Below, piece after piece: positions 1-13,004 of a DNA stretch of 13,004 nucleotides; position 1 is the first letter of the stretch, and every line of letters begins with the position of its first letter. The notes under the pieces were generated by a model. The model ran no database searches. It had not been told where the DNA came from and saw only the letters and a list, made by a program, of their open reading frames with translations. This stretch comes from a virus (taxonomy: Duplodnaviria > Heunggongvirae > Uroviricota > Caudoviricetes): the IMG/VR virus record IMGVR_UViG_2740892421_000017, positions 1 to 13,004 of that record, one strand, 5' to 3'. A program made the translations under genes and the position numbers.

Positions 1-10
1 TTTAATGCCT

Positions 11-43
11 CTTAAATTAAAAGGCCGCCATGGGATAGCGGCC
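11..43 (-). terminator. Putative rho-independent terminator/attenuator downstream of yehD
   Basis: Inverted repeat ggccgc(23-28)...gcggcc(38-43); on the minus strand it is followed by a T-run (complement of cttaaattaaaa at 11-22). Sits just 3' of the yehD stop (80-82). Confidence 0.4.
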
Positions 44-79
44 ATGTTTATTACCTGGAGAAACTTACAATTTTATTTA

Positions 80-622
80 TTAATCCTGCGCCACACGCAT
101 AACCAGAGAAGATAACACATCACCTGATTGCACTGAGTTATCTGTCAGTTTCAGGTATTTTGCTTTAAACGGAATAGCATATTGACCTTCCGCTGTTTTA
201 TAACTCTCAATGTTAAAAGGTGCAGAAACATCCAGGACATCGCTGTTATCACCTAAATAGAGATAGTAACCCACGGTATCGTTGCTACTGGCTATCGCCT
301 TATCGTTACCGGTTATTTTATCGTTGGTAATCAACGAGAGTTTTACACCAGCAACTTCTTTCGGGCAGCTAATTTTTAACATGCTGCTGGTTACACCGAC
401 TGCATCATCATAGGTAGAATATTTAGCTTTACCTTCAAAGACAGTGGTTGGTACAGTCGGCATATTAATACTTACTGAATCACCACCCGCTTCGAATTTA
501 CACGGAGATTCTGCAATATTCCCCTTAATAGTTAATGTTCCGGTATCAACGTCTGCAGCAAATACTCCAGCGCTCATAAAAAAAGAAGAAAAGACAGCGG
601 CAGCAATAATTGAACGTTTCAT
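80..622 (-). CDS. yehD: Fimbrial-like (type 1 pilin family) subunit, 180 aa, with N-terminal signal peptide
   Basis: ORF 80..622 (-). N-terminus MKRSIIAAAVFSSFFMSAGVFAADV is a typical Sec signal peptide; the rest resembles fimbrial major subunits. Sequence and gene order (yehD-yehE-mrp-metG) match the E. coli K-12 yeh locus as I recall it. Confidence 0.85.
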   Translation of the reverse strand: MKRSIIAAAVFSSFFMSAGVFAADVDTGTLTIKGNIAESPCKFEAGGDSVSINMPTVPTTVFEGKAKYSTYDDAVGVTSSMLKISCPKEVAGVKLSLITNDKITGNDKAIASSNDTVGYYLYLGDNSDVLDVSAPFNIESYKTAEGQYAIPFKAKYLKLTDNSVQSGDVLSSLVMRVAQD

Positions 623-846
623 AATATGTTCCTTAATAAAATTTATTTTTGGTTGTTAAGAGTCTGTATCTCTTGGAAACAAATTTCTCACATCAAAAAA
701 GTTGCCGCAATGTAAACACATTGTTTTATTGATTTAAAACAAATTAACCATTGCAATATAAATACAACAAATATTTAAGAGTATTAACTATTTATCGCAT
801 CTATCAATTAATGTAGATTTATGTAAATGGTATTGTTGATATCAAT
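623..846. promoter_or_regulatory. AT-rich intergenic region upstream of yehD (probable fimbrial operon promoter/regulatory region)
   Basis: About 220 bp of strongly AT-rich sequence directly upstream of the yehD start on the minus strand. No specific -10/-35 assigned. Confidence 0.35.
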
Positions 847-885
847 AAAAAAGCCGAAATCATTTATATAAATGATTTCGGCTTT
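847..885 (-). terminator. Rho-independent terminator downstream of yehE (bidirectional-capable)
   Basis: Perfect 30-bp palindrome gccgaaatcatttatataaatgatttcggc (853-882), flanked by an A-run (847-852, giving a U-run on the minus strand) and ttt (883-885). Confidence 0.6.
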
Positions 886-914
886 CTAAATGCAATTAAA
901 ATCAGGTTGCCAAA

Positions 915-1196
915 TTAATCGTAGCGATTTAACACGATTCGACGTTTGCTATCGCTACCTGCAACAACCACTTCTGTCGTTACACCTTTGACGGGCGAAG
1001 AAAACAGATGACGGGTGTCAACATTATACGTTAACTGACCACAATGCTGTTGAGGTTGACCATTAACCATAGCCATACTGCATGTTGGGGGACTGATCCT
1101 GCCATTAATCGCTAATGTGGCAGTCTCTGAAGAGAACGCGGGAGAAGCCAATCCATAGGCAAGAAAAATAATTCCTGACAGCCAATACTTATTCAT
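915..1196 (-). CDS. yehE: Small secreted protein of unknown function (YehE-like, DUF2574-type), 93 aa
   Basis: ORF 915..1196 (-) begins MNKYWLSGIIFLAYGLASPAFS (signal peptide). Position between yehD and mrp matches E. coli K-12 synteny. Confidence 0.75.
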   Translation of the reverse strand: MNKYWLSGIIFLAYGLASPAFSSETATLAINGRISPPTCSMAMVNGQPQQHCGQLTYNVDTRHLFSSPVKGVTTEVVVAGSDSKRRIVLNRYD

Positions 1197-1384
1197 TGAA
1201 CGTTATCCCTGTAGTAAAGGTTATGCCTGGATAGAATGAGTGCATAACAAACTATAGCTGTACATCCACTACACAGCCACGAAGGATGATAATGAAGCAT
1301 TGCCTGTACGATCAATCGACTTTGTAGAGTTTCGGACGAAGGTCCGCAGAATATTCGCAGTATTAAATAAGTGTTCATTAATGC

Positions 1385-1428
1385 GGCAAAAACAAATACA
1401 CCGCATCAATATAACATCTCTGCGGTGT
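1385..1428 (-). terminator. Rho-independent terminator of mrp (copy 1)
   Basis: Hairpin acaccgca(1398-1405)...tgcggtgt(1421-1428); on the minus strand it is followed by atttgtttttgcc (complement of 1385-1397). Lies about 30 nt 3' of the mrp stop at 1459-1461. Confidence 0.55.
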
Positions 1429-1458
1429 ATGAAGAATAACCAGAATGGTTAATAGGCG

Positions 1459-2568
1459 TTAGACCGCGCGGAAGGAAATCTCGCCTGGAATGACTTCACC
1501 CTGCCAGTAGAGCTGAGCTGCAACGCGGTCAGCCAGCTGGCGGTAGATAGCGGTAAATTCGCTCTCCGGACGGCTGATAACCGTTGGCGTGCCTTTATCG
1601 AGATCCTCACGTAAGGAGATGTGTAACGGCATCTGCCCCAGCAGCTGTGTGTGGTATTTTTCAGCCAGTTTCTCAGCACCACCGGTACCGAAAATCGGTT
1701 CATGGTGACCACAGTTACTGCAAATATGCACACTCATGTTCTCGACAATACCAAGCACCGGAACCTCGACTTTCTCGAACATCACAATGCCTTTTTTCGC
1801 ATCGATCAACGCGATGTCCTGCGGGGTGGTGACCACGACTGCACCAGTTACTGGAATGTTTTGCGCCAGCGTCAATTGAATGTCACCGGTGCCTGGCGGC
1901 ATATCAAGCACCAGATAGTCGAGATCCGGCCACAAGGTTTCCTGCAACATCTGCATTAACGCCTTGCTCGCCATCGGTCCACGCCACACCATCGCATTGT
2001 CGTCAGTGACCAGATAACCAATTGAATTGGTTGCCAGGCCATGAGACATAATCGGTGCCATATGGGTACCGTCCGGCGAAGTTGGACGCTGATTTTCTGC
2101 GCCCAGCATGGTGGGAATTGATGGGCCGTAGATATCGGCGTCCAGAATGCCGACTTTCGCCCCTTCCGCCGCCAGTGCCAGCGCCAGGTTTACCGCCGTG
2201 GAGGATTTACCCACGCCGCCTTTACCGGAACTGACCGCAATGATGTTCTTCACACCATTAATACCCGGCTGATTCTTCACGCGTTTTAAGGTGGCGATAT
2301 TGTGCGACAGTTTCCAGTCGATAGCTTTCGCCCCGGTGATACGCAGCAGTTCGGCGCTACATTGCTCTTTTAACTCTTCAAACGCGCTATGCCAGACGAA
2401 TGGCATAACCAGTTCCACATGCAACGTGTCGTCCATCCAGGCGACATGGTGCAACGCTTTCAGCGTGGTGAGGTTATGCTTCAGGGTTGGGTGCTGAAAA
2501 TTGGCCAGTGTCCCGGCGACCATTGCGCGCAAGGCTTCTGGTGATTTGGCCTGGGATTGTTCGTTCAT
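1459..2568 (-). CDS. mrp: Mrp/ApbC family iron-sulfur cluster carrier ATPase, 369 aa (copy 1)
   Basis: Translation from the MNEQSQAKSPEALRAMVAGT start contains the deviant Walker A/P-loop SSGKGGVGKSS and the CSNCGH cysteine motif, as in E. coli Mrp/ApbC. GGAG Shine-Dalgarno lies upstream of the ATG at 2566-2568. The ORF-track start at 2598 (MVYLYKKGVG...) was rejected as an upstream extension. Confidence 0.95.
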   Translation of the reverse strand: MNEQSQAKSPEALRAMVAGTLANFQHPTLKHNLTTLKALHHVAWMDDTLHVELVMPFVWHSAFEELKEQCSAELLRITGAKAIDWKLSHNIATLKRVKNQPGINGVKNIIAVSSGKGGVGKSSTAVNLALALAAEGAKVGILDADIYGPSIPTMLGAENQRPTSPDGTHMAPIMSHGLATNSIGYLVTDDNAMVWRGPMASKALMQMLQETLWPDLDYLVLDMPPGTGDIQLTLAQNIPVTGAVVVTTPQDIALIDAKKGIVMFEKVEVPVLGIVENMSVHICSNCGHHEPIFGTGGAEKLAEKYHTQLLGQMPLHISLREDLDKGTPTVISRPESEFTAIYRQLADRVAAQLYWQGEVIPGEISFRAV

Positions 2569-2699
2569 CCCGACTCCTTTTTTGTATAAATAAACCATCA
2601 GCTGATAGTTTACCTGAAGAATATAGAGAAGTACTTACTTAACATTTTCCCATTTGGTACTATCTAACCCCTTTTCACTATTAAGAAGTAATGCCTACT
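2569..2699. promoter_or_regulatory. Divergent mrp/metG promoter region (copy 1)
   Basis: 131-bp AT-rich intergenic region between the divergently transcribed mrp and metG starts. Confidence 0.4.
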
Positions 2700-3621
2700 A
2701 TGACTCAAGTCGCGAAGAAAATTCTGGTGACGTGCGCACTGCCGTACGCTAACGGCTCAATCCACCTCGGCCATATGCTGGAGCACATCCAGGCTGATGT
2801 CTGGGTCCGTTACCAGCGAATGCGCGGCCACGAGGTCAACTTCATCTGCGCCGACGATGCCCACGGTACACCGATCATGCTGAAAGCTCAGCAGCTTGGT
2901 ATCACCCCGGAGCAGATGATTGGCGAAATGAGTCAGGAGCATCAGACTGATTTCGCAGGCTTTAACATCAGCTATGACAACTATCACTCGACGCACAGCG
3001 AAGAGAACCGCCAGTTGTCAGAACTTATCTACTCTCGCCTGAAAGAAAACGGTTTTATTAAAAACCGCACCATCTCTCAGCTGTACGATCCGGAAAAAGG
3101 CATGTTCCTGCCGGACCGTTTTGTGAAAGGCACCTGCCCGAAATGTAAATCCCCGGATCAATACGGCGATAACTGCGAAGTCTGCGGCGCGACCTACAGC
3201 CCGACTGAACTGATCGAGCCGAAATCGGTGGTTTCTGGCGCTACGCCGGTAATGCGTGATTCTGAACACTTCTTCTTTGATCTGCCCTCTTTCAGCGAAA
3301 TGTTGCAGGCATGGACCCGCAGCGGTGCGTTGCAGGAGCAGGTGGCAAATAAAATGCAGGAGTGGTTTGAATCTGGCCTGCAACAGTGGGATATCTCCCG
3401 CGACGCCCCTTACTTCGGTTTTGAAATTCCGAACGCGCCGGGCAAATATTTCTACGTCTGGCTGGACGCACCGATTGGCTACATGGGTTCTTTCAAGAAT
3501 CTGTGCGACAAGCGCGGCGACAGCGTAAGCTTCGATGAATACTGGAAGAAAGACTCCACCGCCGAGCTGTACCACTTCATCGGTAAAGATATTGTTTACT
3601 TCCACAGCCTGTTCTGGCCTG
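2700..3621 (+). CDS. metG: Methionyl-tRNA synthetase, 5' fragment (first ~307 codons), cut off by the N-run
   Basis: Translation [31 protein letters not shown]... carries the class I aaRS HIGH-type motif ([11 protein letters not shown]) and is co-linear with the full-length copy at 10747..12780 as far as ...YFHSLFWP. Sequence after the N-run is unrelated to metG. Confidence 0.9.
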
Positions 3622-3631
3622 NNNNNNNNNN
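3622..3631. other. Run of 10 N: assembly gap / scaffold junction
   Basis: Ten consecutive n characters in the sequence; flanking sequence is unrelated on the two sides (metG on the left, unknown ORF on the right). Confidence 0.95.
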
Positions 3632-3997
3632 ATGTTCGCGGGTGAGTTCGTCCGCAGCGGTGCCAAAAACTACCTTGAGCTGGATTACAACGTCCCTGCA
3701 ATTGGCGATTTCGTCGTTACCATCCAACGCAAAGAAGGTAAGACGCCAGGTGAACGCGTCGCAGAGCTTGAGGCCGTTGTGGATCAGCGTAACGGAGAGT
3801 GTGACCGTTTGATCAGCGAGCTTCATGCACTTCGGGAAGAAAGAATATGCGAGGGTAGTAATACACGTAATGCAGCGGATATCTACTTCCAGTTAGTTGA
3901 GGAATGCCAGATTCCACCAGGTGGCTCTCTTGTCGATTACGTCAGACATTTAATGGCGGAAGTTAACTCCAGCCATAAAGATGGTGAGGTGCGCTGA
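3632..3997 (+). CDS. Hypothetical protein, probably 5'-truncated by the gap (at least 121 aa)
   Basis: ORF begins at the first ATG right after the N-run; contains a predicted coiled-coil stretch (ERVAELEAVVDQRNGECDRLISELHALREER). Its stop overlaps the next start (TGATG at 3995-3999). Confidence 0.5.
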   Translation: MFAGEFVRSGAKNYLELDYNVPAIGDFVVTIQRKEGKTPGERVAELEAVVDQRNGECDRLISELHALREERICEGSNTRNAADIYFQLVEECQIPPGGSLVDYVRHLMAEVNSSHKDGEVR

Positions 3998-4377
3998 TGT
4001 TTGGCATTGATGCACAGCGTATAGCCGCTTTTGCAAAAAGTCCTCTTGATAATCCCTTGTCTCGTAGTGAGCAAATGGCACTGGCAAGGCTTTTTCTTCA
4101 CATTCAAAAACAGGCAGACATTTTCAATAACATGCCTAATCAACCTATTCTGGATGGTCACATCCAGATGGTCATTAACAGTCATGAGAAAGGCTGGGCT
4201 GCAATCGTCCCCTGCACAATTACATACAGGTTGGCGAAAGAGGTTCAAGAGTTTCGAAAAGTCAGTGTCGAATCAGAGTCTACCAAAGCCGCAATAAACA
4301 CTCTTATTCGCATGGGGTTCACATGGGACGGTGGAGCTTACTGGCAAGCACCTCAACCCATTTTATCCGGCAATTAG
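3997..4377 (+). CDS. Hypothetical protein, 126 aa
   Basis: ORF 3997..4377, start overlapping the upstream stop; no family recognised by eye. Confidence 0.55.
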   Translation: MFGIDAQRIAAFAKSPLDNPLSRSEQMALARLFLHIQKQADIFNNMPNQPILDGHIQMVINSHEKGWAAIVPCTITYRLAKEVQEFRKVSVESESTKAAINTLIRMGFTWDGGAYWQAPQPILSGN

Positions 4378-4407
4378 GCGCTACAAATCCTTCTGCATGA
4401 ATAAATA

Positions 4408-4428
4408 AAGGCCATAACTTATGGCCTT
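4408..4428. terminator. Putative hairpin/terminator after the 3632-4377 gene pair
   Basis: Inverted repeat aaggccat(4408-4415)...atggcctt(4421-4428) with A/T-rich flanks on both sides. U-tract is imperfect on the plus strand. Confidence 0.3.
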
Positions 4429-4515
4429 AAATAAATTGTTTTCTACCTTTTCTTATTTGTGAAAATAAACCAGCACTTGGTAGTGCTTATGTAACAGCAA
4501 AGAAGAGAAAAACAC

Positions 4516-4971
4516 ATGAGTAACAAAATCGAAAATCCCGTAGTTCTCATTCACAAGCGCGAGAACCACGACTCCTATGCGGTGGCGATCACCAATGGGA
4601 GTCACGATTTTTACGATGGCCTGCTAATGGCCTCAGTGTCGCCTGATGAGGCAGACAACTCTTTTGCCGTCTTCGCTATGGTTGGTTACTACATGGCTGC
4701 CGAAATTGAGAAGTTGCGGGCGCAAAGAGACGCATTAGCGGCGGAGAATGCAGCCCTGAAAGAATCTGAGCGAGCATTCGATGCGATGTGTGCCGAGGAA
4801 CACGGAGATAATTGGGTTAGCGAATTAACGGAGACTCCAGCCACCGATGCTTTTCTGGCTGAAGTACGTGCGCAGGGCGTGGAGATGTTTGCTGAGTGCG
4901 CATACACACTTGAACATCATGATCACGCAGTAGCCTTCGCCGCTGAGCTTCGCAAAGGAAATAAACAGTGA
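4516..4971 (+). CDS. Hypothetical protein with central coiled coil, 151 aa (possibly Ea22-like prophage early protein)
   Basis: ORF with purine-rich region upstream (agaagagaaaaacacATG). Coiled-coil-like segment AAEIEKLRAQRDALAAENAALKESERAF. First gene of a chain of overlapping ORFs. Confidence 0.6.
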   Translation: MSNKIENPVVLIHKRENHDSYAVAITNGSHDFYDGLLMASVSPDEADNSFAVFAMVGYYMAAEIEKLRAQRDALAAENAALKESERAFDAMCAEEHGDNWVSELTETPATDAFLAEVRAQGVEMFAECAYTLEHHDHAVAFAAELRKGNKQ

Positions 4972-5570
4972 ATGAGATTTACTACCTGACGTTACGTGAA
5001 CGTTATTCACCAAAACCAGCGCCTAAATGCTCTGTTTGTGGCGAGGAAATGTCAATACAGCGCATATCTGGAGCACATGTTGTTTATGCCTGTTCCGGTG
5101 AGGGTGATGACGGATATTTTAAGATAGGGCGTACTTTTGCAGACGAACATTATGAAAAATCACGCGTAACAGTAGTTGATGCTAGTGATCCCGATGTGAT
5201 TGCACTGCTGGACGAACTGGATAAAAGACAGCAACACATCCGACGTCTTGAGCAGGAGAACGTAGAGATGGTCCTAACGCTTGAGAAGCTGCGTGTTGAG
5301 CTTGAGGAGACAAAATCAAAACTCAACGAACAGCGTGAATATTACGAAGGTGTTATCTCGGATGGGAGTAAGCGCATAGCAGAGTTAGAAAGTGATTCTC
5401 AGGCACAAAAGTTAGTTGAAGCAATCATTGTTGCGATAGAAAACGAACAGGAACGTCTTTTTGATGAAGATTACCTAATGGATTCGAAAGAATGCATTGA
5501 CGTAATTCGTGAAGAAGTAAAGCGATGGAATGATTCCCGCGCCGCTGGCATTCGCATCAAAGGAGAGTGA
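4968..5570 (+). CDS. Hypothetical protein, 200 aa, GTG start; N-terminal CxxC...H...C motif plus coiled coil
   Basis: GTG start at 4968 overlaps the upstream TGA (GTGA); AAGGAA Shine-Dalgarno 7 nt upstream. Motif [22 protein letters not shown], then a heptad-like region [39 protein letters not shown]. Confidence 0.6.
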
Positions 5571-5571
5571 G

Positions 5572-5895
5572 ATGACCACATCGCATTCTGCAATTACCCA
5601 GGAAAAAGCCTTCCACATACTCGAACGATTAGAGGCGCTTGCTACGGAGGAGGATATATCCCCGGAGAAACTGGTTGAGTTCAGCCGTGTGATATTGCGT
5701 CGCAAGAACGATATGGAGCGGCTGACATCTGGCGCTCCATCCTTATCAGTCAGGCGAACACTTTGTTGCAGCTTCTGCAACAAATCCCAGTACGCCGTCA
5801 AAAAGTTAATTGCTGGGGACGCCGTTTTCATCTGCGACGAGTGTGTGGATGTGTGCAACAGAATTATCCGGGGAGAGAAAGAGGGATCAGCATGA
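5572..5895 (+). CDS. ClpX-type C4 zinc-finger domain protein, 107 aa
   Basis: C-terminal segment [38 protein letters not shown] closely matches the N-terminal zinc-binding domain of E. coli ClpX ([39 protein letters not shown], from memory). Strong GGAG Shine-Dalgarno 6 nt upstream of the ATG at 5572. The ORF-track start at 5530 lies inside the upstream gene and was rejected. Confidence 0.7.
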
Positions 5896-6422
5896 AATTT
5901 TCCAAATTTTCTGAGTTGGTGAATCGTATTTTGTCCAACAACCACAGCCATCGTCGCGATATGGATGTAACGATCGTTGTTCATTCGCCTGGTCGCATCG
6001 GTTCAACACCATCAGTTGAGGTTCAGTCAATTCAGGCGGGTTTTGATTGGGATGCCGGGCAAGTGATGATTTTTCCAGCACAGCCACTGACCACGCTAAC
6101 ACCAGAGCAGGTTGCTGATATCACTGATAGTGTGCGCAAAGGTCAGTCTTGGCACGCGTATCAGGAATACAAGAAGCATAAAGAGCAGTTGGAAAAATTG
6201 TCGATGGAGTTGGAAGGCGCTAAACAGCGGGAAAAAGATCTGTTTATGGAAAATGTTCGACTTAAGTCAGGTATAGCCGGTCTGATACACCTCGGTATTC
6301 GATATGCGGATGTTGAGGTCATGAAAATTGCTGGAGATGCCCAGCTTTCTACTCCATGCACTGACAGCATCATAAACAGCATTGCAGCAGGCATTTTCAC
6401 CAAAGAGGGGGCAGCACGATGA
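5892..6422 (+). CDS. Hypothetical protein with coiled coil, 176 aa
   Basis: ATG at 5892 overlaps the upstream stop (ATGA); GAGGG Shine-Dalgarno upstream. Coiled-coil-like [35 protein letters not shown]. The ORF-track start at 5763 was rejected as an upstream extension. Confidence 0.6.
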
Positions 6423-6604
6423 GAACACTAGAGGTTCGCGCTGAAGACGTAATCCCTGGTGATGTGCTCATAACATCTAAAGGTCAACAATGTGCGGTTA
6501 AATCTTTTTGGATGGAAAATGACAAAGTGACTCTGTTCGGTACGGATGGTTCCGAAACTGATTATGACTACGACGAATTGCTTGTTGTTGAGAGAGCTGC
6601 CTAA
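6419..6604 (+). CDS. Small hypothetical protein, 61 aa
   Basis: ATGA start/stop overlap with the upstream gene and TAATG overlap with the downstream gene; part of the coupled chain. Confidence 0.5.
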   Translation: MRTLEVRAEDVIPGDVLITSKGQQCAVKSFWMENDKVTLFGTDGSETDYDYDELLVVERAA

Positions 6605-7257
6605 TGACCACCGTTAACAATAAGAAATGCTACCCAAGCGAGAAATATCTTAATGAGCTGATCACCAACATTGAGTTTGCTGCAAGAGCACCAGTTGAAG
6701 TCGTGAGAGCGATTGCAGCAGAGCTACAGAAGCACCGTAAGGCCTATGCCAATACAGCCGCATCTAAGGATGGTTGGATAAGCTGTAGTGAGCGAATGCC
6801 TGTAATTGGCGAGCTAAATTGGAGAACTAGTTTTCCTTTACTGGTTACGTGTGAGATCGGCGTTATACCTGCTTATTACGGCTTTGTGAGCGTTAATGGT
6901 GATAGGCATTATGGCTTTATGGAGAGTCTTAAATACGGAGACGCTAACGGCAACCATCCTCAAACTAATGAATATGGTCTGATTAGCAATGTCACACACT
7001 GGATGCCACTACCAGAACGCCGCAGGAGTCGAACAGTGAATAATGCAGAGTTATTTCAGAAAATATCGGCTCTCGCGACTGAATGCCACGCTATAGCATC
7101 TGAGCTTGATGTTGGCGATGAACGAACCGAGATGTTCGAAATATACAGTGTGCTGCGCAATCTCTGTCGGCGTGGCTACGCCACTCAAGTAGGGCGAATG
7201 ACTAACCCACTACTCTCATCCTGTGATGAGGATGACTCGGATGAGGATGACGAATGA
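6604..7257 (+). CDS. DUF551-like phage protein with acidic C-terminal tail, 217 aa
   Basis: Segment DGWISCSERMP...THWMPLPERR resembles the conserved core of the DUF551 family common in lambdoid prophage early regions (from memory). C-terminus is SSCDEDDSDEDDE. Confidence 0.6.
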   Translation: MTTVNNKKCYPSEKYLNELITNIEFAARAPVEVVRAIAAELQKHRKAYANTAASKDGWISCSERMPVIGELNWRTSFPLLVTCEIGVIPAYYGFVSVNGDRHYGFMESLKYGDANGNHPQTNEYGLISNVTHWMPLPERRRSRTVNNAELFQKISALATECHAIASELDVGDERTEMFEIYSVLRNLCRRGYATQVGRMTNPLLSSCDEDDSDEDDE

Positions 7258-7637
7258 TGCATAAATCAGTAGCCGGTGAGTTTCAGAAGGAAGTCGATAA
7301 TACCACTGATCTATTGGACGATATTTTAAGCATTCTCGCGCTGCTTGAGGCTGGCGATTGGTCAGAACATTGCACTAAAACAGAGCTAGGCGGTCGGCTT
7401 GAAAGAGAGATTACACGACTGATTAGCGATGCCCAAAATGATTTGTCACCTGAGCATCTCCCCTGCGATGTAGTTCTTGTGCCAGGGATGAGGATACACG
7501 AAGGCGTCAGAACGAAAACATTATTAACCGCATTACAGAGAAGAGCCGAACTAAGCTCGCGGATAAAGTTGATGCCATCCAAAATATTTGATGTCGTCAA
7601 ATTTACGCCATCGCAACATACTGAGAGAGATAAATGA
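7254..7637 (+). CDS. Hypothetical protein, 127 aa
   Basis: ORF whose start overlaps the upstream stop (ATGATG) and whose stop overlaps the next start (ATGA). Confidence 0.55.
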   Translation: MMHKSVAGEFQKEVDNTTDLLDDILSILALLEAGDWSEHCTKTELGGRLEREITRLISDAQNDLSPEHLPCDVVLVPGMRIHEGVRTKTLLTALQRRAELSSRIKLMPSKIFDVVKFTPSQHTERDK

Positions 7638-8260
7638 GCACGGTAGCGAAAGATCTCACAGAAGATATTCTCAATAAAATTATTGCTGGTGCAAATACCT
7701 CGCTTGAGCAACTTCTTGCGTTAGCACTGAGAGCCGAACGTCGAGACAGAAATCGTTTTTATGAGCGATTACCAGGGAAGCGACCAGATAGATCGGATGA
7801 AGAAGGTTGCGATATAGACTACATGGAGCCTTCAGAGATTTATCAACTTGGTAAAGATGACGGCTGGAACGCTTATCACGATGCTGTGATGAAGTTGGAT
7901 GAAAAAGTTAAACCTCTTTCTCGACCGGTAGATCACGGTTTCCGCGATAACTGCGAATGCTCTAGTTGCCAGACCACGGCCCGTATTTGTTCCGAATTGA
8001 CAGATAAGTCCAGCCTAATCTACGAAGTTAATGTAGGCGGTAATACATGGGTCGAATGCACAAGAGCTGCATACGTAAGAGCAAAAGACAAGGGTGAATT
8101 AACCAGAGTTGTTACCAATCACCCAAATAATGAGCTTAAAGATCACCAGATTCGAGAACTGGTGAACGAGTTGAGAGATATTGCGGTTCAGTACCACGGA
8201 ACGCAGCAATTGCGGGAGAAGATTGCCAGAGCAGTGAACAACTCAGTCCGTAAAAAATAA
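7634..8260 (+). CDS. Hypothetical protein with cysteine cluster (CxCxxC-x6-C), 208 aa
   Basis: Last gene of the coupled chain. Motif DNCECSSCQTTARICSE suggests a small metal-binding knuckle. Followed by a hairpin at 8278-8302. Confidence 0.6.
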   Translation: MSTVAKDLTEDILNKIIAGANTSLEQLLALALRAERRDRNRFYERLPGKRPDRSDEEGCDIDYMEPSEIYQLGKDDGWNAYHDAVMKLDEKVKPLSRPVDHGFRDNCECSSCQTTARICSELTDKSSLIYEVNVGGNTWVECTRAAYVRAKDKGELTRVVTNHPNNELKDHQIRELVNELRDIAVQYHGTQQLREKIARAVNNSVRKK

Positions 8261-8277
8261 GCAATAGTACGATAAAG

Positions 8278-8302
8278 AGGCCCCATGCTCTTGATGGGGC
8301 CT
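8278..8302. terminator. Putative transcription-terminating hairpin after the operon
   Basis: 9-bp stem aggccccat(8278-8286)/atggggcct(8294-8302) with a 7-nt loop. No clear U-tract on the plus strand, so a rho-independent call is tentative. Confidence 0.35.
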
Positions 8303-8369
8303 GTAGCAACTAGCGTTATGGACGCTGGTTTACGTACTCAATGATCGCTTTGATAATCGCGAACATCGG

Positions 8370-8665
8370 CGGCACGATTTTGAACAGTAAGTTAACCATA
8401 ACAGGCCTCACTTAGTTTTATCGCGCCTAGCTGCAAATACCTTTGGGCTTGCCTTTGCAGTTGCAATATCTGTAGTCGCCAGATACTTACGGCACGATTT
8501 CGAGTTAAGGTAAGGTTTTAGAGTCACCAAAAACCTGGACTTAAATCTTCTTTGAGAACAACGATGTTTAGTAAATGGTCATTATTACCTGGTATGACCA
8601 CTCAACCTTTCTTGATGAATCCAGTACATTCGGTTAATCTTAATTCAGTCGCCAGATACTTATGG
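8370..8665. repeat. Mosaic short direct repeats in a noncoding region
   Basis: Repeat Y, agtcgccagatactta[c/t]gg, at 8474-8492 and 8647-8665. Repeat X, cggcacgattt[t/c]ga, at 8370-8383 and 8490-8503. The first Y copy abuts the second X copy (Y+X composite at 8474-8503). Confidence 0.6.
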
Positions 8666-8671
8666 CTCAGG

Positions 8672-8730
8672 AACAGAGCCGCAAACTCTGTTTCCTTTTA
8701 AAAAGCCCAGCCTAGTCAACTGGGCTTTTT
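8672..8730 (+). terminator. Tandem rho-independent terminators (second one bidirectional-capable)
   Basis: Hairpin aacagag(8673-8679)-ccgcaaa-ctctgtt(8687-8693) followed by tccttttaaaaa; then hairpin agcccag(8704-8710)-cctagtcaa-ctgggct(8720-8726) followed by ttttt (8726-8730) and preceded by an A-run. Confidence 0.6.
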
Positions 8731-9025
8731 AATGTCTATTTTTAACCCAACATACCCTCAATACTGCAACATCAGTGTCTTGCGAATTAAGATAGTGTGA
8801 ATAGATTTTTCATGCAAGTGCATAAGCCTGTGGATAACTCAGGAAGGAAAAAGTGACTTCTGCGCACTTTAGACCGGACAAGGCGTTCGAAAAAGTCAAT
8901 GGGAAGAAAAAATTTGTTAAAAATAACGTTTGTTTGAATTGTATATATTTATGCCTTTCAATAGTTAGCATCTTATTAACATCTTTTTTAAGAGATAGAG
9001 TTCAAAAATATATAGCTTCAATATA

Positions 9026-9045
9026 TACTGTATGTGTATACAGTA
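9026..9045. promoter_or_regulatory. LexA (SOS) box overlapping the putative promoter of the UmuD'-like gene
   Basis: TACTGTATGTGTATACAGTA, a palindromic CTGT-N8-ACAG element matching the E. coli LexA consensus TACTGT(AT)4ACAGTA. Plausible -35 ttcaaa (9001-9006) and -10 tatact (9024-9029); box ends 16 nt before the ATG at 9062. Confidence 0.75.
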
Positions 9046-9061
9046 TTAAGAGGCGAGTATT

Positions 9062-9451
9062 ATGGGCTTCCCTTCTCCTGCGGCGGATTATGCTGAGAGC
9101 CGTATTTCTCTTGATCAGCAGATAATTAGACATCCTTCAGCGACCTACTTCATGAGGGCAGCTGATAGTCATCATCGTGAGGGAATATTACAGGGTGCAT
9201 TGCTGGTGGTCGATTCCTCACTTACCCCGGTTGATGGTTCTCTGCTTGTATGCGCTCTGGATGGGGAATATCGCGTAAAAAGATACCGGAAGTACCCACG
9301 TCAGCATCTGGAGGATTTAAGAACCGGTAAGAAGGAAGCATTGCCAAAGGATGACGATGGATGCACGGGCAGCAATGCCGTGTTTGGTGTGATCACTCAC
9401 ATTATCAACGACGCAAGAAGTGGCGAGTTTGATGATTGTCCCGTGATGTAG
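9062..9451 (+). CDS. UmuD'-like protein (peptidase S24 / LexA C-terminal-domain fold), naturally lacking the N-terminal arm, 129 aa
   Basis: Begins [30 protein letters not shown], aligning with E. coli UmuD from Gly25 onward (...VQC/[29 protein letters not shown]...). In-frame TAA at 9047-9049 excludes an N-terminal extension. AAGAGG Shine-Dalgarno at 9048-9053. Ser/Lys dyad region retained but altered (AADSHH, RVKRY). Confidence 0.75.
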   Translation: [129 protein letters not shown]

Positions 9452-9463
9452 GAGAACTGATTA

Positions 9464-9487
9464 GGCGGTGCAATGCACCGCCTTTTT
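9464..9487. terminator. Bidirectional terminator between the convergent UmuD'-like gene and mrp (copy 2)
   Basis: Stem ggcggtg(9464-9470)/caccgcc(9476-9482) with loop caatg, followed by ttttt (9483-9487); immediately adjacent to the mrp stop codon (9489-9491). Confidence 0.6.
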
Positions 9488-9488
9488 A

Positions 9489-10589
9489 TCACACTGCGCG
9501 GAATGCGATTTCGCCAGGTATTACTTCACCTTGCCAATACATTTGGGCAGCAACGCGATCTGCGAGGTCACGATAAATAGCCGTAAATTCACTATCTGGA
9601 CGACTAATAACGGTTGGTGTTCCGTTATCCAGATCTTCACGAAGAGAGATATGAAGTGGCATTTGGCCTAACAACTGCGTGTTGTATTTCTCGGCCAGTT
9701 TCTCTGCGCCACCGGTGCCAAAAATTGGCTCGTGATGACCGCAGTTACTGCAAATATGCACACTCATGTTTTCGACGATACCAAGTACCGGCACTTCGAC
9801 TTTTTCGAACATCACAATGCCTTTCTTCGCATCGATCAGCGCGATGTCTTGCGGCGTAGTTACCACAACAGCACCAGTTACAGGAATGTTCTGCGCCAGC
9901 GTCAACTGAATATCACCAGTGCCCGGCGGCATATCGAGAACAAGATAGTCCAGATCAGGCCACAATGTTTCCTGCAACATCTGCATTAACGCCTTGCTCG
10001 CCATCGGTCCACGCCACACCATTGCATTGTCGTCGGTGACCAGATAACCAATAGAGTTGGTTGCCAGGCCATGAGACATGATAGGTGCCATGTGAGTACC
10101 GTCAGGTGAGGTTGGACGTTGGTTTTCCGCGCCCAGCATGGTTGGAATTGATGGACCATAGATATCGGCATCCAAAATACCAACTTTCGCACCTTCAGCA
10201 GCCAACGCCAGTGCCAGGTTTACCGCCGTGGAGGATTTACCCACGCCGCCCTTGCCTGAGCTGACGGCGATAATGTTCTTAACGCCATTAATGCCTGGTT
10301 GGTTTTTGACGCGCTTAAGCGTGGCAATGTTGTACGACAGCTTCCAGTCAATAGCCTTTGCGCCAGTGATACGGAGCAGATCACCACTACATTGCTCTTT
10401 CAGGTCTTCAAAAGGCTTATTCCACACGAAAGGCATGATTAGTTCGACATGCAGTGTGTCATCCATCAACGCAACATGGTGTAACGCTTTAAGCGTAGTC
10501 AGGTTGTGTTTCAGGGTTGGGTGCTGAAAATTAGCCAGCGTACCGGCTACCATTGCTCTCAGGGCATCCGGCGATTTGGACTCGCTCAT
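9489..10589 (-). CDS. mrp: Mrp/ApbC family iron-sulfur cluster carrier ATPase, 366 aa (copy 2, diverged ortholog)
   Basis: Translation MSESKSPDALRAMVAGT... with P-loop SSGKGGVGKSS and CSNCGH motif; co-linear with copy 1 but with about 20 amino-acid differences. GGAG Shine-Dalgarno upstream. Confidence 0.95.
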   Translation of the reverse strand: MSESKSPDALRAMVAGTLANFQHPTLKHNLTTLKALHHVALMDDTLHVELIMPFVWNKPFEDLKEQCSGDLLRITGAKAIDWKLSYNIATLKRVKNQPGINGVKNIIAVSSGKGGVGKSSTAVNLALALAAEGAKVGILDADIYGPSIPTMLGAENQRPTSPDGTHMAPIMSHGLATNSIGYLVTDDNAMVWRGPMASKALMQMLQETLWPDLDYLVLDMPPGTGDIQLTLAQNIPVTGAVVVTTPQDIALIDAKKGIVMFEKVEVPVLGIVENMSVHICSNCGHHEPIFGTGGAEKLAEKYNTQLLGQMPLHISLREDLDNGTPTVISRPDSEFTAIYRDLADRVAAQMYWQGEVIPGEIAFRAV

Positions 10590-10746
10590 CCCGTCTCCTT
10601 TATTTTAATTTGCGCAATTGTCGCCTTGTAGTGTACTCCAGCTACGACATTTAATCATTTATGAGAAATGCTGTTATCACATGGCAGACATAAGGCCATT
10701 TTGTTACTATCAAGCCCCTTTTCACTACAAAGAAGTAATGCCTACT
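10590..10746. promoter_or_regulatory. Divergent mrp/metG promoter region (copy 2)
   Basis: 157-bp intergenic region between divergent mrp and metG starts; sequence differs from copy 1 except near the metG start. Confidence 0.4.
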
Positions 10747-12780
10747 ATGACCCAAGTCGCGAAGAAAATTCTGGTGACGTGCGCGCTGCCGTACGCTAAC
10801 GGCTCAATCCACCTCGGCCATATGCTGGAGCACATCCAGGCTGATGTCTGGGTTCGTTACCAGCGAATGCGCGGCCACGAGGTTAATTTCATCTGTGCCG
10901 ACGATGCCCACGGTACGCCGATCATGCTGAAAGCACAGCAGCTTGGTATCACACCGGAGCAGATGATTGGCGAAATGAGTCAGGAACACCAGACTGATTT
11001 CGCAGGCTTTAACATCAGCTATGACAACTATCACTCGACGCACAGCGAAGAGAACCGTCAGTTGTCTGAGCTTATCTATACTCGCCTGAAAGAGAACGGT
11101 TTTATTAAAAACCGCACTATCTCTCAGTTGTACGACCCGGAAAAAGGCATGTTCCTGCCGGATCGTTTTGTAAAAGGCACCTGCCCGAAATGTAAAGCGC
11201 CAGATCAATACGGCGATAACTGTGAAGTCTGCGGCGCAACATATAGCCCGACTGAATTGATCGAGCCGAAATCGGTGGTTTCTGGCGCTACCCCGGTAAT
11301 GCGTGATTCCGAACACTTCTTCTTTGATCTGCCTTCTTTCAGCGAAATGTTGCAGGCATGGACCCGCAGCGGCGCGTTGCAGGAGCAGGTGGCGAACAAA
11401 ATGCAGGAATGGTTTGAATCCGGCCTGCAACAGTGGGATATCTCCCGAGATGCGCCCTACTTCGGTTTTGAAATTCCGAACGCGCCGGGCAAATATTTCT
11501 ACGTCTGGCTGGACGCGCCGATTGGCTACATGGGTTCCTTCAAGAATCTGTGCGACAAGCGCGGCGATACCACCAGCTTCGATGAATACTGGAAGAAAGA
11601 CTCCACCGCCGAGCTGTACCACTTCATCGGTAAAGATATTGTTTACTTCCACAGCCTGTTCTGGCCTGCCATGCTGGAAGGCAGCAACTTCCGCAAGCCG
11701 ACCAACCTGTTTGTTCATGGCTATGTGACGGTGAACGGCGCGAAGATGTCCAAGTCTCGCGGCACCTTTATTAAAGCCAGCACCTGGCTGAATCATTTTG
11801 ACGCTGACAGCCTGCGTTACTACTACACTGCGAAACTCTCTTCGCGCATTGATGATATCGATCTCAACCTGGAGGATTTCGTTCAGCGTGTGAATGCCGA
11901 TATCGTGAATAAAGTGGTTAACCTGGCCTCCCGCAACGCAGGCTTTATCAACAAGCGTTTTGACGGTGTGCTGGCAAGCGAGCTGGCTGACCCTGAGCTG
12001 TACAAAACCTTTACCGATGCCGCTGAAGTGATTGGTGAAGCGTGGGAAAGCCGTGAATTTGGTAAAGCAGTGCGCGAAATCATGGCACTGGCTGACCTGG
12101 CTAACCGCTATGTCGACGAGCAGGCTCCGTGGGTAGTCGCAAAACAGGAAGGTCGCGATGCTGACCTGCAGGCGATTTGCTCAATGGGCATCAACCTGTT
12201 CCGCGTGCTGATGACTTACCTGAAGCCGGTACTGCCGAAACTGACCGAGCGTGCAGAAGCCTTCCTCAATACGGAACTGACCTGGGATGGTATCCAGCAA
12301 CCGCTGCTGGACCACAAAGTGAATCCGTTCAAGGCACTGTATAACCGCATCGATATGAAGCAGGTTGAAGCACTGGTGGAAGCGTCTAAAGAAGAAGTGA
12401 AAGCAGCTGCCGCGCCAGTTACTGGCCCACTGGCAGATGATCCGATTCAGGAAACCATCACCTTTGACGACTTCGCCAAAGTTGACCTGCGCGTAGCGCT
12501 GATCGAAAACGCAGAGTTTGTTGAAGGTTCTGACAAACTGCTGCGCCTGACACTGGATCTCGGCGGTGAAAAACGCAATGTCTTCTCCGGTATTCGTTCT
12601 GCCTACCCGGATCCGCAGGCACTGATTGGTCGTCACACCATTATGGTGGCTAACCTGGCACCACGTAAAATGCGCTTTGGAATCTCCGAAGGCATGGTGA
12701 TGGCTGCCGGTCCAGGCGGGAAAGATATCTTCCTGCTAAGCCCGGATGCTGGTGCTAAACCGGGTCATCAGGTGAAATAA
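10747..12780 (+). CDS. metG: Methionyl-tRNA synthetase, complete, 677 aa
   Basis: Translation from [26 protein letters not shown] contains the HIGH-type motif and KMSKS (GAKMSKSRG) and ends ...[10 protein letters not shown], matching E. coli MetG length and sequence as I recall it. The ORF-track start at 10618 is an upstream extension and was rejected. Confidence 0.95.
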
Positions 12781-12790
12781 TCCCCCTTCA

Positions 12791-12819
12791 AGGCGCTGCA
12801 TCGACAGCGCCTTTTCTTT
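12791..12819 (+). terminator. Rho-independent terminator of metG
   Basis: Stem aggcgctg(12791-12798)/cagcgcct(12805-12812) with loop catcga, followed by tttcttt (12813-12819). Confidence 0.7.
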
Positions 12820-12920
12820 ATAAATTCCTAAAGTTGTTTTCTTGCGATTTTGTCTCTCTCTAACCCGCATAAATACTGGTAGCATCTGCATTCAACTGGA
12901 TAAAATTACAGGGATGCAGA

Positions 12921-13004
12921 ATGAGACACTTTATCTATCAGGACGAAAAATCACATAAATTCTGGGCGGTGGAGCAACAGGGAAACGAGTTGCATATCAG
13001 TTGG
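12921..13004 (+). CDS. molR: WGR-domain protein (MolR-like), first 28 codons only; continues past window end
   Basis: ATG at 12921; translation MRHFIYQDEKSHKFWAVEQQGNELHISW resembles the N-terminus of the E. coli gene downstream of metG (molR/yehH region), from memory. Confidence 0.55.
   Translation, partial: MRHFIYQDEKSHKFWAVEQQGNELHISW

Follow-up and report, generated by a model that had tools for sequence, protein, structure and literature searches.

A candidate type I toxin-antitoxin-like cassette in an unannotated gap of an SSU5-like phage-plasmid

We analyzed a stretch of 13,004 nt from a virus of the class Caudoviricetes (positions 1 to 13,004 of the IMG/VR record IMGVR_UViG_2740892421_000017; this whole stretch is called the window below) and found that an 801-bp gap between two of its genes probably harbors a type I toxin-antitoxin-like cassette of an SSU5-like phage-plasmid, formed by a 27-amino-acid (aa) candidate membrane toxin encoded on the minus strand and an antisense small RNA (sRNA) encoded on the plus strand (Table 1). 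A preliminary description of the same DNA had treated the region as noncoding, with mosaic direct repeats and tandem terminators and no credible open reading frame (ORF). This premise is wrong: the minus strand carries a conserved ORF of 27 codons, and the earlier reading overlooked both this peptide gene and the role of the repeats as RNA-RNA pairing partners. We consider the cassette most readily explained as a new family within a known kind of system, the type I toxin-antitoxin systems with trans-acting sRNAs.

For comparison we collected homologous loci by scanning viral contigs with the core of the long direct repeat (a 14-base key, AGTCGCCAGATACNT), keeping those with two copies 162-178 nt apart and adding plasmid matches; with the same key, genome contigs yielded mostly chance single matches. 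About 14 distinct loci resulted, on plasmids of Escherichia coli, Citrobacter and Enterobacter and on IMG/VR contigs; for those that have diverged, overall identity to the window is only 60-66%.

The peptide ORF is kept in all these loci, each time with a Shine-Dalgarno (SD) sequence, and is under purifying selection: the ratio of non-synonymous to synonymous differences (pN/pS) lies between 0.0 and 0.6 among the loci, with nine synonymous and two non-synonymous changes between the window and locus L237, and four to six synonymous and no non-synonymous changes when L217, L237 and L242 are compared. The locus thus contains a small (<60 aa), hydrophobic and truly protein-coding gene, as is generally expected of type I systems. 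Residues 1-20 of the peptide are hydrophobic, with a grand average of hydropathy (GRAVY) of 1.85, similar to DinQ, TisB and DqlB. The terminator of the peptide mRNA has the same GGCCC...GGGCC stem in the homologous loci, where the minus-strand U-run is better (for example, in L237). At the other end, a scan with a position weight matrix (PWM) found, in the majority of loci (L166, L217, L237 and L242 among them), an AT-rich, -10-like hexamer that ends about 40-47 nt away from a shared reference point. An exact look-up of the peptide returned only records of an unnamed or "hypothetical" protein; full-text literature searches found the cassette described in no title or abstract, and searches with the peptide string were also empty.

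In several loci the putative mRNA also encodes a paralog of the peptide (MALLLLFLKLAHPVTAIITALLGYFKDR), placed upstream of it. Tandem ORFs of type B, then type A, behind one leader were seen in L003 (2800-2994), L161, L196, L197, L231, L241, L245 and L246, and the ATA start codon of the type B ORF in L138 and L207 suggests inactivation of one copy. A 40-codon leader ORF (8530..8408) considered as a mok-like leader peptide was rejected, being interrupted in L003 and not conserved.

Among the explanations offered by the preliminary description was a structured small RNA, and this one is supported. The segment 8647-8733 folds with a minimum free energy (MFE) of -34 kcal/mol (z = -5.6), is preceded by a conserved promoter-like element, and begins with a hairpin whose arms are GCCAGA...UAUGGC. 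The covariation analysis that had been suggested as a check bore this out: in the alignment of 12 distinct sRNA homologs 95.8% of the cells in the consensus structure are paired, falling to 32-64% upon sliding of the 3' partners; compensatory changes occur in four pairs, and none of 500 shuffles reaches the covariation score. A covariance model built here (R1) scores the window sRNA at 87 bits and the homologs at 83-99 bits. Sequence conservation starts exactly at A8647, right after the promoter-like block, and the gene lies about 110 bp upstream of the inferred start of the peptide mRNA, in divergent orientation. The two consecutive plus-strand hairpins that had been taken for tandem terminators do exist (8670-8695 and 8698-8732), with the qualification that only the latter is a canonical terminator, the former being an internal stem-loop. 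Searches against Rfam gave solely sub-threshold hits that changed from locus to locus (AgrB, OrzO-P, RNAI), and we therefore assign the sRNA to no Rfam family. In L166, L237, L161 and L138, but not in the window, operator-like palindromes (CACTATATGTAGTG, CCACTACATGTAGTGG and TACTACATGTAGGA) follow the sRNA terminator at a distance of about 60-90 nt.

What connects the two genes is the long direct repeat. Its presence was confirmed: the copies at 8474-8493 and 8647-8666 are identical in 19 of 20 nt, with a start-to-start spacing of 173, and the 20-nt repeat has two matches in the window against 0.00 expected from 200 shuffles. Since transcription of the two genes is divergent, sequences that read as a plus-strand direct repeat become complementary in the RNAs: the 5' end of the sRNA (8647-8666) matches the mRNA at 8493-8474 as its antisense. 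Judged by sequence, the 19-20-nt repeat most likely represents the sRNA 5' end plus its target in the leader of the peptide mRNA, so that the other general feature of type I systems, an sRNA gene complementary to the toxin mRNA, is found here over 19-20 nt. The predicted duplex has an energy of -38.5 kcal/mol, compared with -18.9 (sd 2.8) for shuffled sRNA tails, and the target is the best non-self site in the window. The single T/C difference between the copies yields a U.G pair (position 17), which is retained in the 22 tabulated loci. Elsewhere the copies change together. At positions 14-16 both sRNA and target have TTA in the group of the window and ATT in the other loci, and at positions 3-4 both change from TC to CT in a Citrobacter freundii plasmid. 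The loop of the target hairpin exposes UGGCGACU, while its 3' arm contains a change matching the substitution at 14-16 (pair 58/80). Cognate sRNA-target pairs have the best energies among the cross-duplexes.

The shorter repeats reported earlier were likewise found: the two copies of a 14-nt repeat (8370-8383 and 8490-8503; 13/14 identical, spacing 120), the head-to-tail fusion of one copy of each repeat, which abut at 8474-8503, and the inverted repeat ctgcaaa/tttgcag. The 20-nt repeat clearly exceeds chance, in line with the earlier remark on exact repeats of 16-17 nt, and the 14-nt one by itself is barely beyond it, because 3 of 200 shuffles reach two matches (with up to two mismatches allowed).

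The structure of the leader gives this second repeat a meaning. RNAalifold applied to 11 leaders predicts a 5' hairpin, the target hairpin, the CUGCAAA...UUUGCAG stem-loop and a long-range helix between AUCGUGCC and GGCGCGAU (8498-8491/8427-8420; columns 48-54 with 119-126, 97% paired). Overall 97% of the cells in the leader helices are paired, compared with 35-44% when the 3' partners are slid, and the helices contain U.G pairs, so that they exist only in minus-strand RNA. In L217 the stem-loop reads CUGCCAA...UUGGCAG, a difference that we read as a compensating change missed by the alignment-based counts. In the MFE fold of the full window mRNA GGCGCGAU pairs instead with the ORF copy of the repeat (8378-8371), extending the hairpin that contains the SD sequence and the AUG. 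Constrained folds of this mRNA give -59.0 kcal/mol for the leader pairing (conformer A) and -60.1 kcal/mol for the ORF pairing (conformer B), the gap being 0-8 kcal/mol in other loci. Because forcing either pairing is nearly isoenergetic in the window, we interpret the 14-nt repeat as two mutually exclusive partners of one anti-sequence. In keeping with this, a compensatory change in L161 and L197 (anti-sequence GGCACGA, ORF partner UCGUGC) affects the ORF pairing, and the leader copy of L242 has A for U, which is paralleled by an inserted U in the anti-sequence. The hairpin around the ribosome-binding site (RBS) is 96% paired across the six single-ORF loci.

Table 1. Features of the candidate cassette (positions in the window).
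Feature	Position	Strand	Details and basis
Candidate toxin ORF, 27 aa, MVNLLFKIVPPMFAIIKAIIEYVNQRP	8316..8399	-	ATG 8399-8397, stop 8318-8316; ORF list, conservation
SD sequence GAGG	8406..8409	-	6 nt upstream of ATG, inside local RBS hairpin (~8417-8349 with extension); read from sequence
Rho-independent terminator of peptide mRNA	8268..8302	-	Stem 8302-8278, tail CTTTATCGTA; terminator scan
5'-terminal hairpin region (8536-8509) and candidate toxin promoter	8509..8580	-	AT-rich -10-like AAGATT 8549-8544; transcription start guessed at ~8536; low confidence
Candidate sRNA target site in 5' untranslated region of mRNA, 5'-GCCGUAAGUAUCUGGCGACU-3'	8474..8493	-	75-94 nt upstream of ATG; hairpin arms 8487-8482, 8470-8465
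Anti-sequence GGCGCGAU in 5' untranslated region	8420..8427	-	Able to pair with either copy of the 14-nt repeat
Leader copy of 14-nt repeat, AUCGUGCC (partner A)	8491..8498	-	Overlaps 5' edge of sRNA-binding site
ORF copy of 14-nt repeat, mRNA AUCGUGCC, codons 8-10 (partner B)	8371..8378	-	Locks RBS hairpin; constrained folds
Leader stem-loop CUGCAAA...UUUGCAG (inverted repeat)	8431..8460	-	Helix 5, 99% paired in 11 loci
Candidate antitoxin sRNA, ~85 nt	8647..8733	+	5' recognition hairpin 8651-8666, stem-loop 8670-8695, terminator 8698-8732
sRNA promoter-like element TTGATG-17-TAATCT	8612..8640	+	Family consensus TTGAAG-17-TAAGCT; inferred +1 A8647

We infer transcription from both strands, the transcript ends, the toxicity of the peptide, the sense in which the switch operates and the function of the cassette, and propose the following mechanism. 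A minus-strand mRNA running from about 8536 to about 8270 would comprise a structured 5' untranslated region (5' UTR) of about 135 nt, the 27-aa peptide and its own terminator. In conformer A, GGCGCGAU would pair with the AUCGUGCC abutting the sRNA site; in conformer B it would pair with the identical AUCGUGCC in the ORF, thereby extending and locking the hairpin with the SD sequence and the AUG. Binding of the sRNA would occupy the leader copy (through the CGUGC overlap) and displace it from the anti-sequence; the freed anti-sequence would then pair with the ORF copy, lock the RBS hairpin and switch translation off. The 20-bp sRNA-mRNA duplex would probably also be a substrate of RNase III. 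Upon loss of the element, decay of a labile sRNA would permit synthesis of the peptide, resulting in post-segregational killing.

Several observations weigh against this interpretation. Transcripts of both strands and the toxicity of the peptide are predictions. A consensus scan gave no minus-strand toxin promoter, and the PWM scan gave just weak AT-rich candidates; the -10 element of the sRNA promoter is weak as well (3/6 consensus positions, not called by the promoter scan), which is why the start at A8647 is an inferred one. The GRAVY of the whole peptide is 0.86, below DinQ, TisB and DqlB, a central Pro-Pro is present, and the peptides match no toxin family in NCBIfam, Pfam, PHROGs or PADLOC. 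Conservation of the first 13 nt of the repeat is ascertained and not observed, because they were used as the search key. As for the switch, covariation in the six single-ORF loci does not rise above shuffles for either the RBS hairpin or the helix of conformer B, and three of these loci have a central mismatch in the latter. Finally, blocking the sRNA site in silico leaves the ensemble accessibility of the RBS unchanged; hence it is helix stacking and locking, and not a change in this accessibility, on which the idea of a switch is based.

The closest parallel to the proposed cassette is dinQ/agrA-agrB of E. coli K-12. Both have a gene for a 27-aa single-helix peptide with one or more divergent sRNA genes of about 82-85 nt upstream on the other strand; in both, the sRNA 5' end and the site in the mRNA 5' UTR form a direct repeat, with the target about 75-110 nt before the start codon; mutually exclusive leader helices open or close the RBS; and the sRNA consists of a 5' antisense region, a stem-loop and a terminator. 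In K-12 the direct repeat is 34 nt long and occurs three times, once in the leader of dinQ, where it lies 74-107 nt before the start codon, and once each at the 5' ends of agrA and agrB. The published dinQ model likewise has mutually exclusive leader structures, with AgrB sequestering "sequence 2" (PMC5066626); when AgrB is bound, sequences 3 and 4 close the SD hairpin and RNase III cuts the duplex, as was shown experimentally (PMC5066626). By analogy, the logic we propose for the cassette is the same as that shown for dinQ. The main features of the DinQ/Dql-AgrB architecture, namely a divergent, non-overlapping sRNA, a site far upstream in the 5' UTR and mutually exclusive leader helices, were all found. 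The cassette differs from dinQ/agrAB in having one sRNA gene rather than two, complementarity of about 20 rather than 34 nt, one alternative pairing partner inside the ORF, and a phage-plasmid rather than a chromosomal location. The segment 8474-8540 was considered as a second, agrA-like sRNA and rejected, as it is without a stem-loop or terminator and lies at the position equivalent to the dinQ target.

A second parallel is dqlB/agrB of plasmid pOXA-48, which was shown in 2025 to be a post-segregational killing (addiction) module located in an unannotated gap next to repA (PMC12365149). Like it, the cassette is plasmid-borne, lies in an unannotated gap close to replication functions and has a divergent trans-acting sRNA pairing with the 5' UTR; the peptides have the motif M[IV]NLL and the spacing A-x-x-x-A-[VI]-I in common (7/20 identical). 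In contrast to DqlB, the window peptide ends with EYVNQRP, has a PP motif and is missed by the DqlB hidden Markov model; some relatives have two tandem paralogous ORFs, and there is no nucleotide similarity at the level of the locus.

In organization the cassette belongs with zorO/orzO, tisB/istR-1 and shoB/ohsC, to which it has no sequence relation and whose peptides are unrelated to the one described here; Rfam OrzO-P scores 34.2 bits on homolog L003 at a gathering score of 60. T1TAdb groups DinQ/AgrB, Zor/Orz, TisB/IstR1 and ShoB/OhsC as one class, with the antisense RNA 5' of the mRNA without overlap, complementarity of 18-21 nt and a long 5' UTR (PMC8594479), and the primary transcript in this class is thought to be translationally inert (PMC8594479; PMC5066626). 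Hok/Sok-type organization was not found: the sRNA gene does not overlap the inferred mRNA, and there is no conserved mok-like ORF.

These parallels raise the question whether the locus is a very divergent member of the DinQ/Dql-AgrB family and not a separate family, a reading we regard as possible but rather doubtful. The locus architecture is identical, and there are weak reciprocal RNA hits: Rfam AgrB (RF02891) matches the window at 8652-8733 with 27.6 bits, and model R1 hits agrB and agrA of K-12 at their annotated coordinates with 27.3 and 24.1 bits, respectively, and agrB of pOXA-48 with 21.4 bits. The stem-loop CAGAGCCGCAAACUCUG resembles CAGAGCCACCAACUCAGG of AgrB, and residues 1-20 of the peptide are 35% identical and 65% similar to DqlB of pOXA-48. 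Against this, the AgrB hit stays below the gathering score of 40 and is absent from five homologous loci, in which the weak hits are to OrzO-P and RNAI instead. Seven variants of the peptide gave no hit at E <= 10 with the models NF041472 (DinQ) and NF041473 (DqlB), for which the controls DinQ and DqlB scored 54 and 73.5 bits, and hhalign returned a probability of 1.3%. Nucleotide similarity of the 5' UTR to dinQ is what defines dql genes (PMC5066626); local alignment of the window locus scored 14 against dinQ and 10 against dqlB, no better than shuffles (maxima 20 and 18), compared with 54 for dinQ against dqlB, and dinQ was not among the BLASTN hits of the region in 5,426 E. coli genomes. 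No LexA box (CTG-N10-CAG) was seen by eye between 8411 and 8700, which sets the locus apart from DinQ sensu stricto. In our view, then, the cassette would work like DinQ/AgrB and may be a very distant relative of it, but on sequence grounds it is not a demonstrable member of the family.

The peptide could also be a real sRNA-regulated small membrane peptide without toxicity, with a regulatory or accessory function (as a modulator of a transporter, lysis or exclusion) and a level tuned by the sRNA. Its moderate hydrophobicity, Pro-Pro motif, polar tail and missing match to any toxin family are in line with this, toxicity being putative; we nevertheless consider it unlikely in view of several hallmarks of type I toxins, namely the dedicated divergent antisense RNA, the long structured leader, the locked RBS, the tandem paralog duplication and the residence on plasmids and prophages beside replication or maintenance genes (PMC5066626, PMC8594479). 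Still less probable is that the true or a second antitoxin is a cis-antisense RNA transcribed from a plus-strand site within the ORF, over the RBS as in Sib, SymR and Sok. The promoter scan does call TTTACG-17-GATAAT at 8329-8357 (+) and a homologous site in L237, and L004 has a better -35 element, TTGACG; these hexamers, however, fall on Ile-Ile and Tyr-Val-Asn codons, which force nATnAT and TTnAC on the opposite strand, there is no terminator before 8698, and such an RNA would leave the conserved stand-alone sRNA gene and its co-varying target unexplained. The preliminary description had further proposed that the repeats act as DNA, either as duplicated att or recombination cores or as repeated protein-binding sites such as iterons or operators, and they do lie near a DnaA box (8829-8837) and, in one plasmid, near a gene for a RepB-family initiator. 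Yet the repeats hold fixed positions, in the same order and with a spacing of 162-178, in one conserved cassette across unrelated replicons; the sequence between them, including RNA structure and the peptide-coding part, is conserved; the copies co-vary as antisense partners while keeping the fixed C/T difference that makes a G.U pair; and the leader helices depend on G.U pairs, so that only minus-strand RNA can form them. The search for the 19-mer elsewhere, suggested with that proposal, found no further occurrence within the window. A function of the repeats at the DNA level is hence highly improbable.

The cassette resides on an SSU5-like phage-plasmid of the same type as Cyrano/pLF82 and pECOH89. 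About 88 non-mobilizable plasmids from E. coli, E. albertii and Shigella (mostly 100-126 kb, pECOH89 among them) contain the gap with 96-100% identity, and it has matches in the Escherichia phages CMS-2020a and Cyrano as well. The latter is the same element as pLF82, the SSU5-like phage-plasmid carried by strain LF82 (PMC9928086), for which RNA-seq data exist (GSE154648; PMC9928086). In all records inspected, including Cyrano/pLF82 of the Crohn's-associated strain LF82 and the plasmid of the pECOH89 type, the gap is without annotation. The cassette was found in 115 of 5,426 complete E. coli genomes (about 2%), mainly on SSU5-like phage-plasmids, and also on plasmids of Citrobacter, Enterobacter, Klebsiella, Kosakonia and Shigella; in a Citrobacter plasmid it lies immediately upstream of the gene for a RepB-family plasmid replication initiator.

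In the window the gap is flanked by a hypothetical gene (7634-8260) and by a gene for an S24 peptidase (HumD/UmuD-like, 9062-9451) preceded by a LexA box. This consensus box, TACTGTATGTGTATACAGTA, the only LexA box noted, is located at 9026-9045, 16 nt upstream of the peptidase gene (HumD/UmuD'-like), which by its sequence context looks like an SOS-controlled gene beside the cassette. At 8829-8837, downstream of the sRNA terminator, TGTGGATAA forms a perfect DnaA box (in reverse complement, TTATCCACA); several homologous loci have CTGTGGATAA in the corresponding position. Segment 8810-9061 shares about 79% identity with P1/P7 DNA, and in a P1 record this stretch is annotated as "promoter" and "dnaA box". 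Because of this homology and the perfect DnaA box, we treat the stretch rightwards from about 8810 as a separate matter.

Other features were observed outside the gap. According to RefSeq and ENA annotation of identical elements, the window contains an apbC/mrp-like (MinD-family) gene at 9489-10589 (-) and a full-length methionyl-tRNA synthetase gene, metG, at 10618-12780 (+). A strong AT-rich hairpin with a GC clamp (AAAAAAGCCGAAATCATTTATATAAATGATTTCGGCTTT) at 848-890, probably a bidirectional terminator, gave spurious sub-threshold Rfam hits to miRNA and snoRNA families. On the viral contig of L217, the gammaproteobacterial sRNA STnc100 has a full-score match at 3349-3552 (-) with 81.4 bits (gathering score 47), a few kb from the homologous cassette.

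By analogy, the cassette likely serves for addiction to, or stabilization of, the phage-plasmid, since the analogous dqlB/agrB is a post-segregational killing module and the Citrobacter cassette adjoins the RepB-family initiator gene. Chances seem about even for the most complete version of this reading, in which the cassette is the first example of a type I toxin-antitoxin family, so far undescribed, that is spread among SSU5-like phage-plasmids as well as other plasmids and prophages of enterobacteria, and that serves as an addiction or exclusion module in which a trans-acting sRNA flips a bistable leader encoded by repeats. Two identical 8-nt segments, one on the side of the sRNA site and one in the ORF, would then compete for one anti-sequence and thereby lock the RBS, and two tandem paralogous toxins per mRNA would be possible.

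If the cassette is a working addiction module, it would be a maintenance determinant of SSU5-like phage-plasmids absent from published toxin-antitoxin lists, enlarging by one family the few type I systems of enterobacteria whose sRNA acts in trans, and helping the carrier elements, some of which carry CTX-M-15, to persist. It provides a compact natural example of a direct repeat encoding an RNA switch, and the combination of mosaic direct repeats with terminators, in a gap that looks empty, may be a usable signature for locating such modules.

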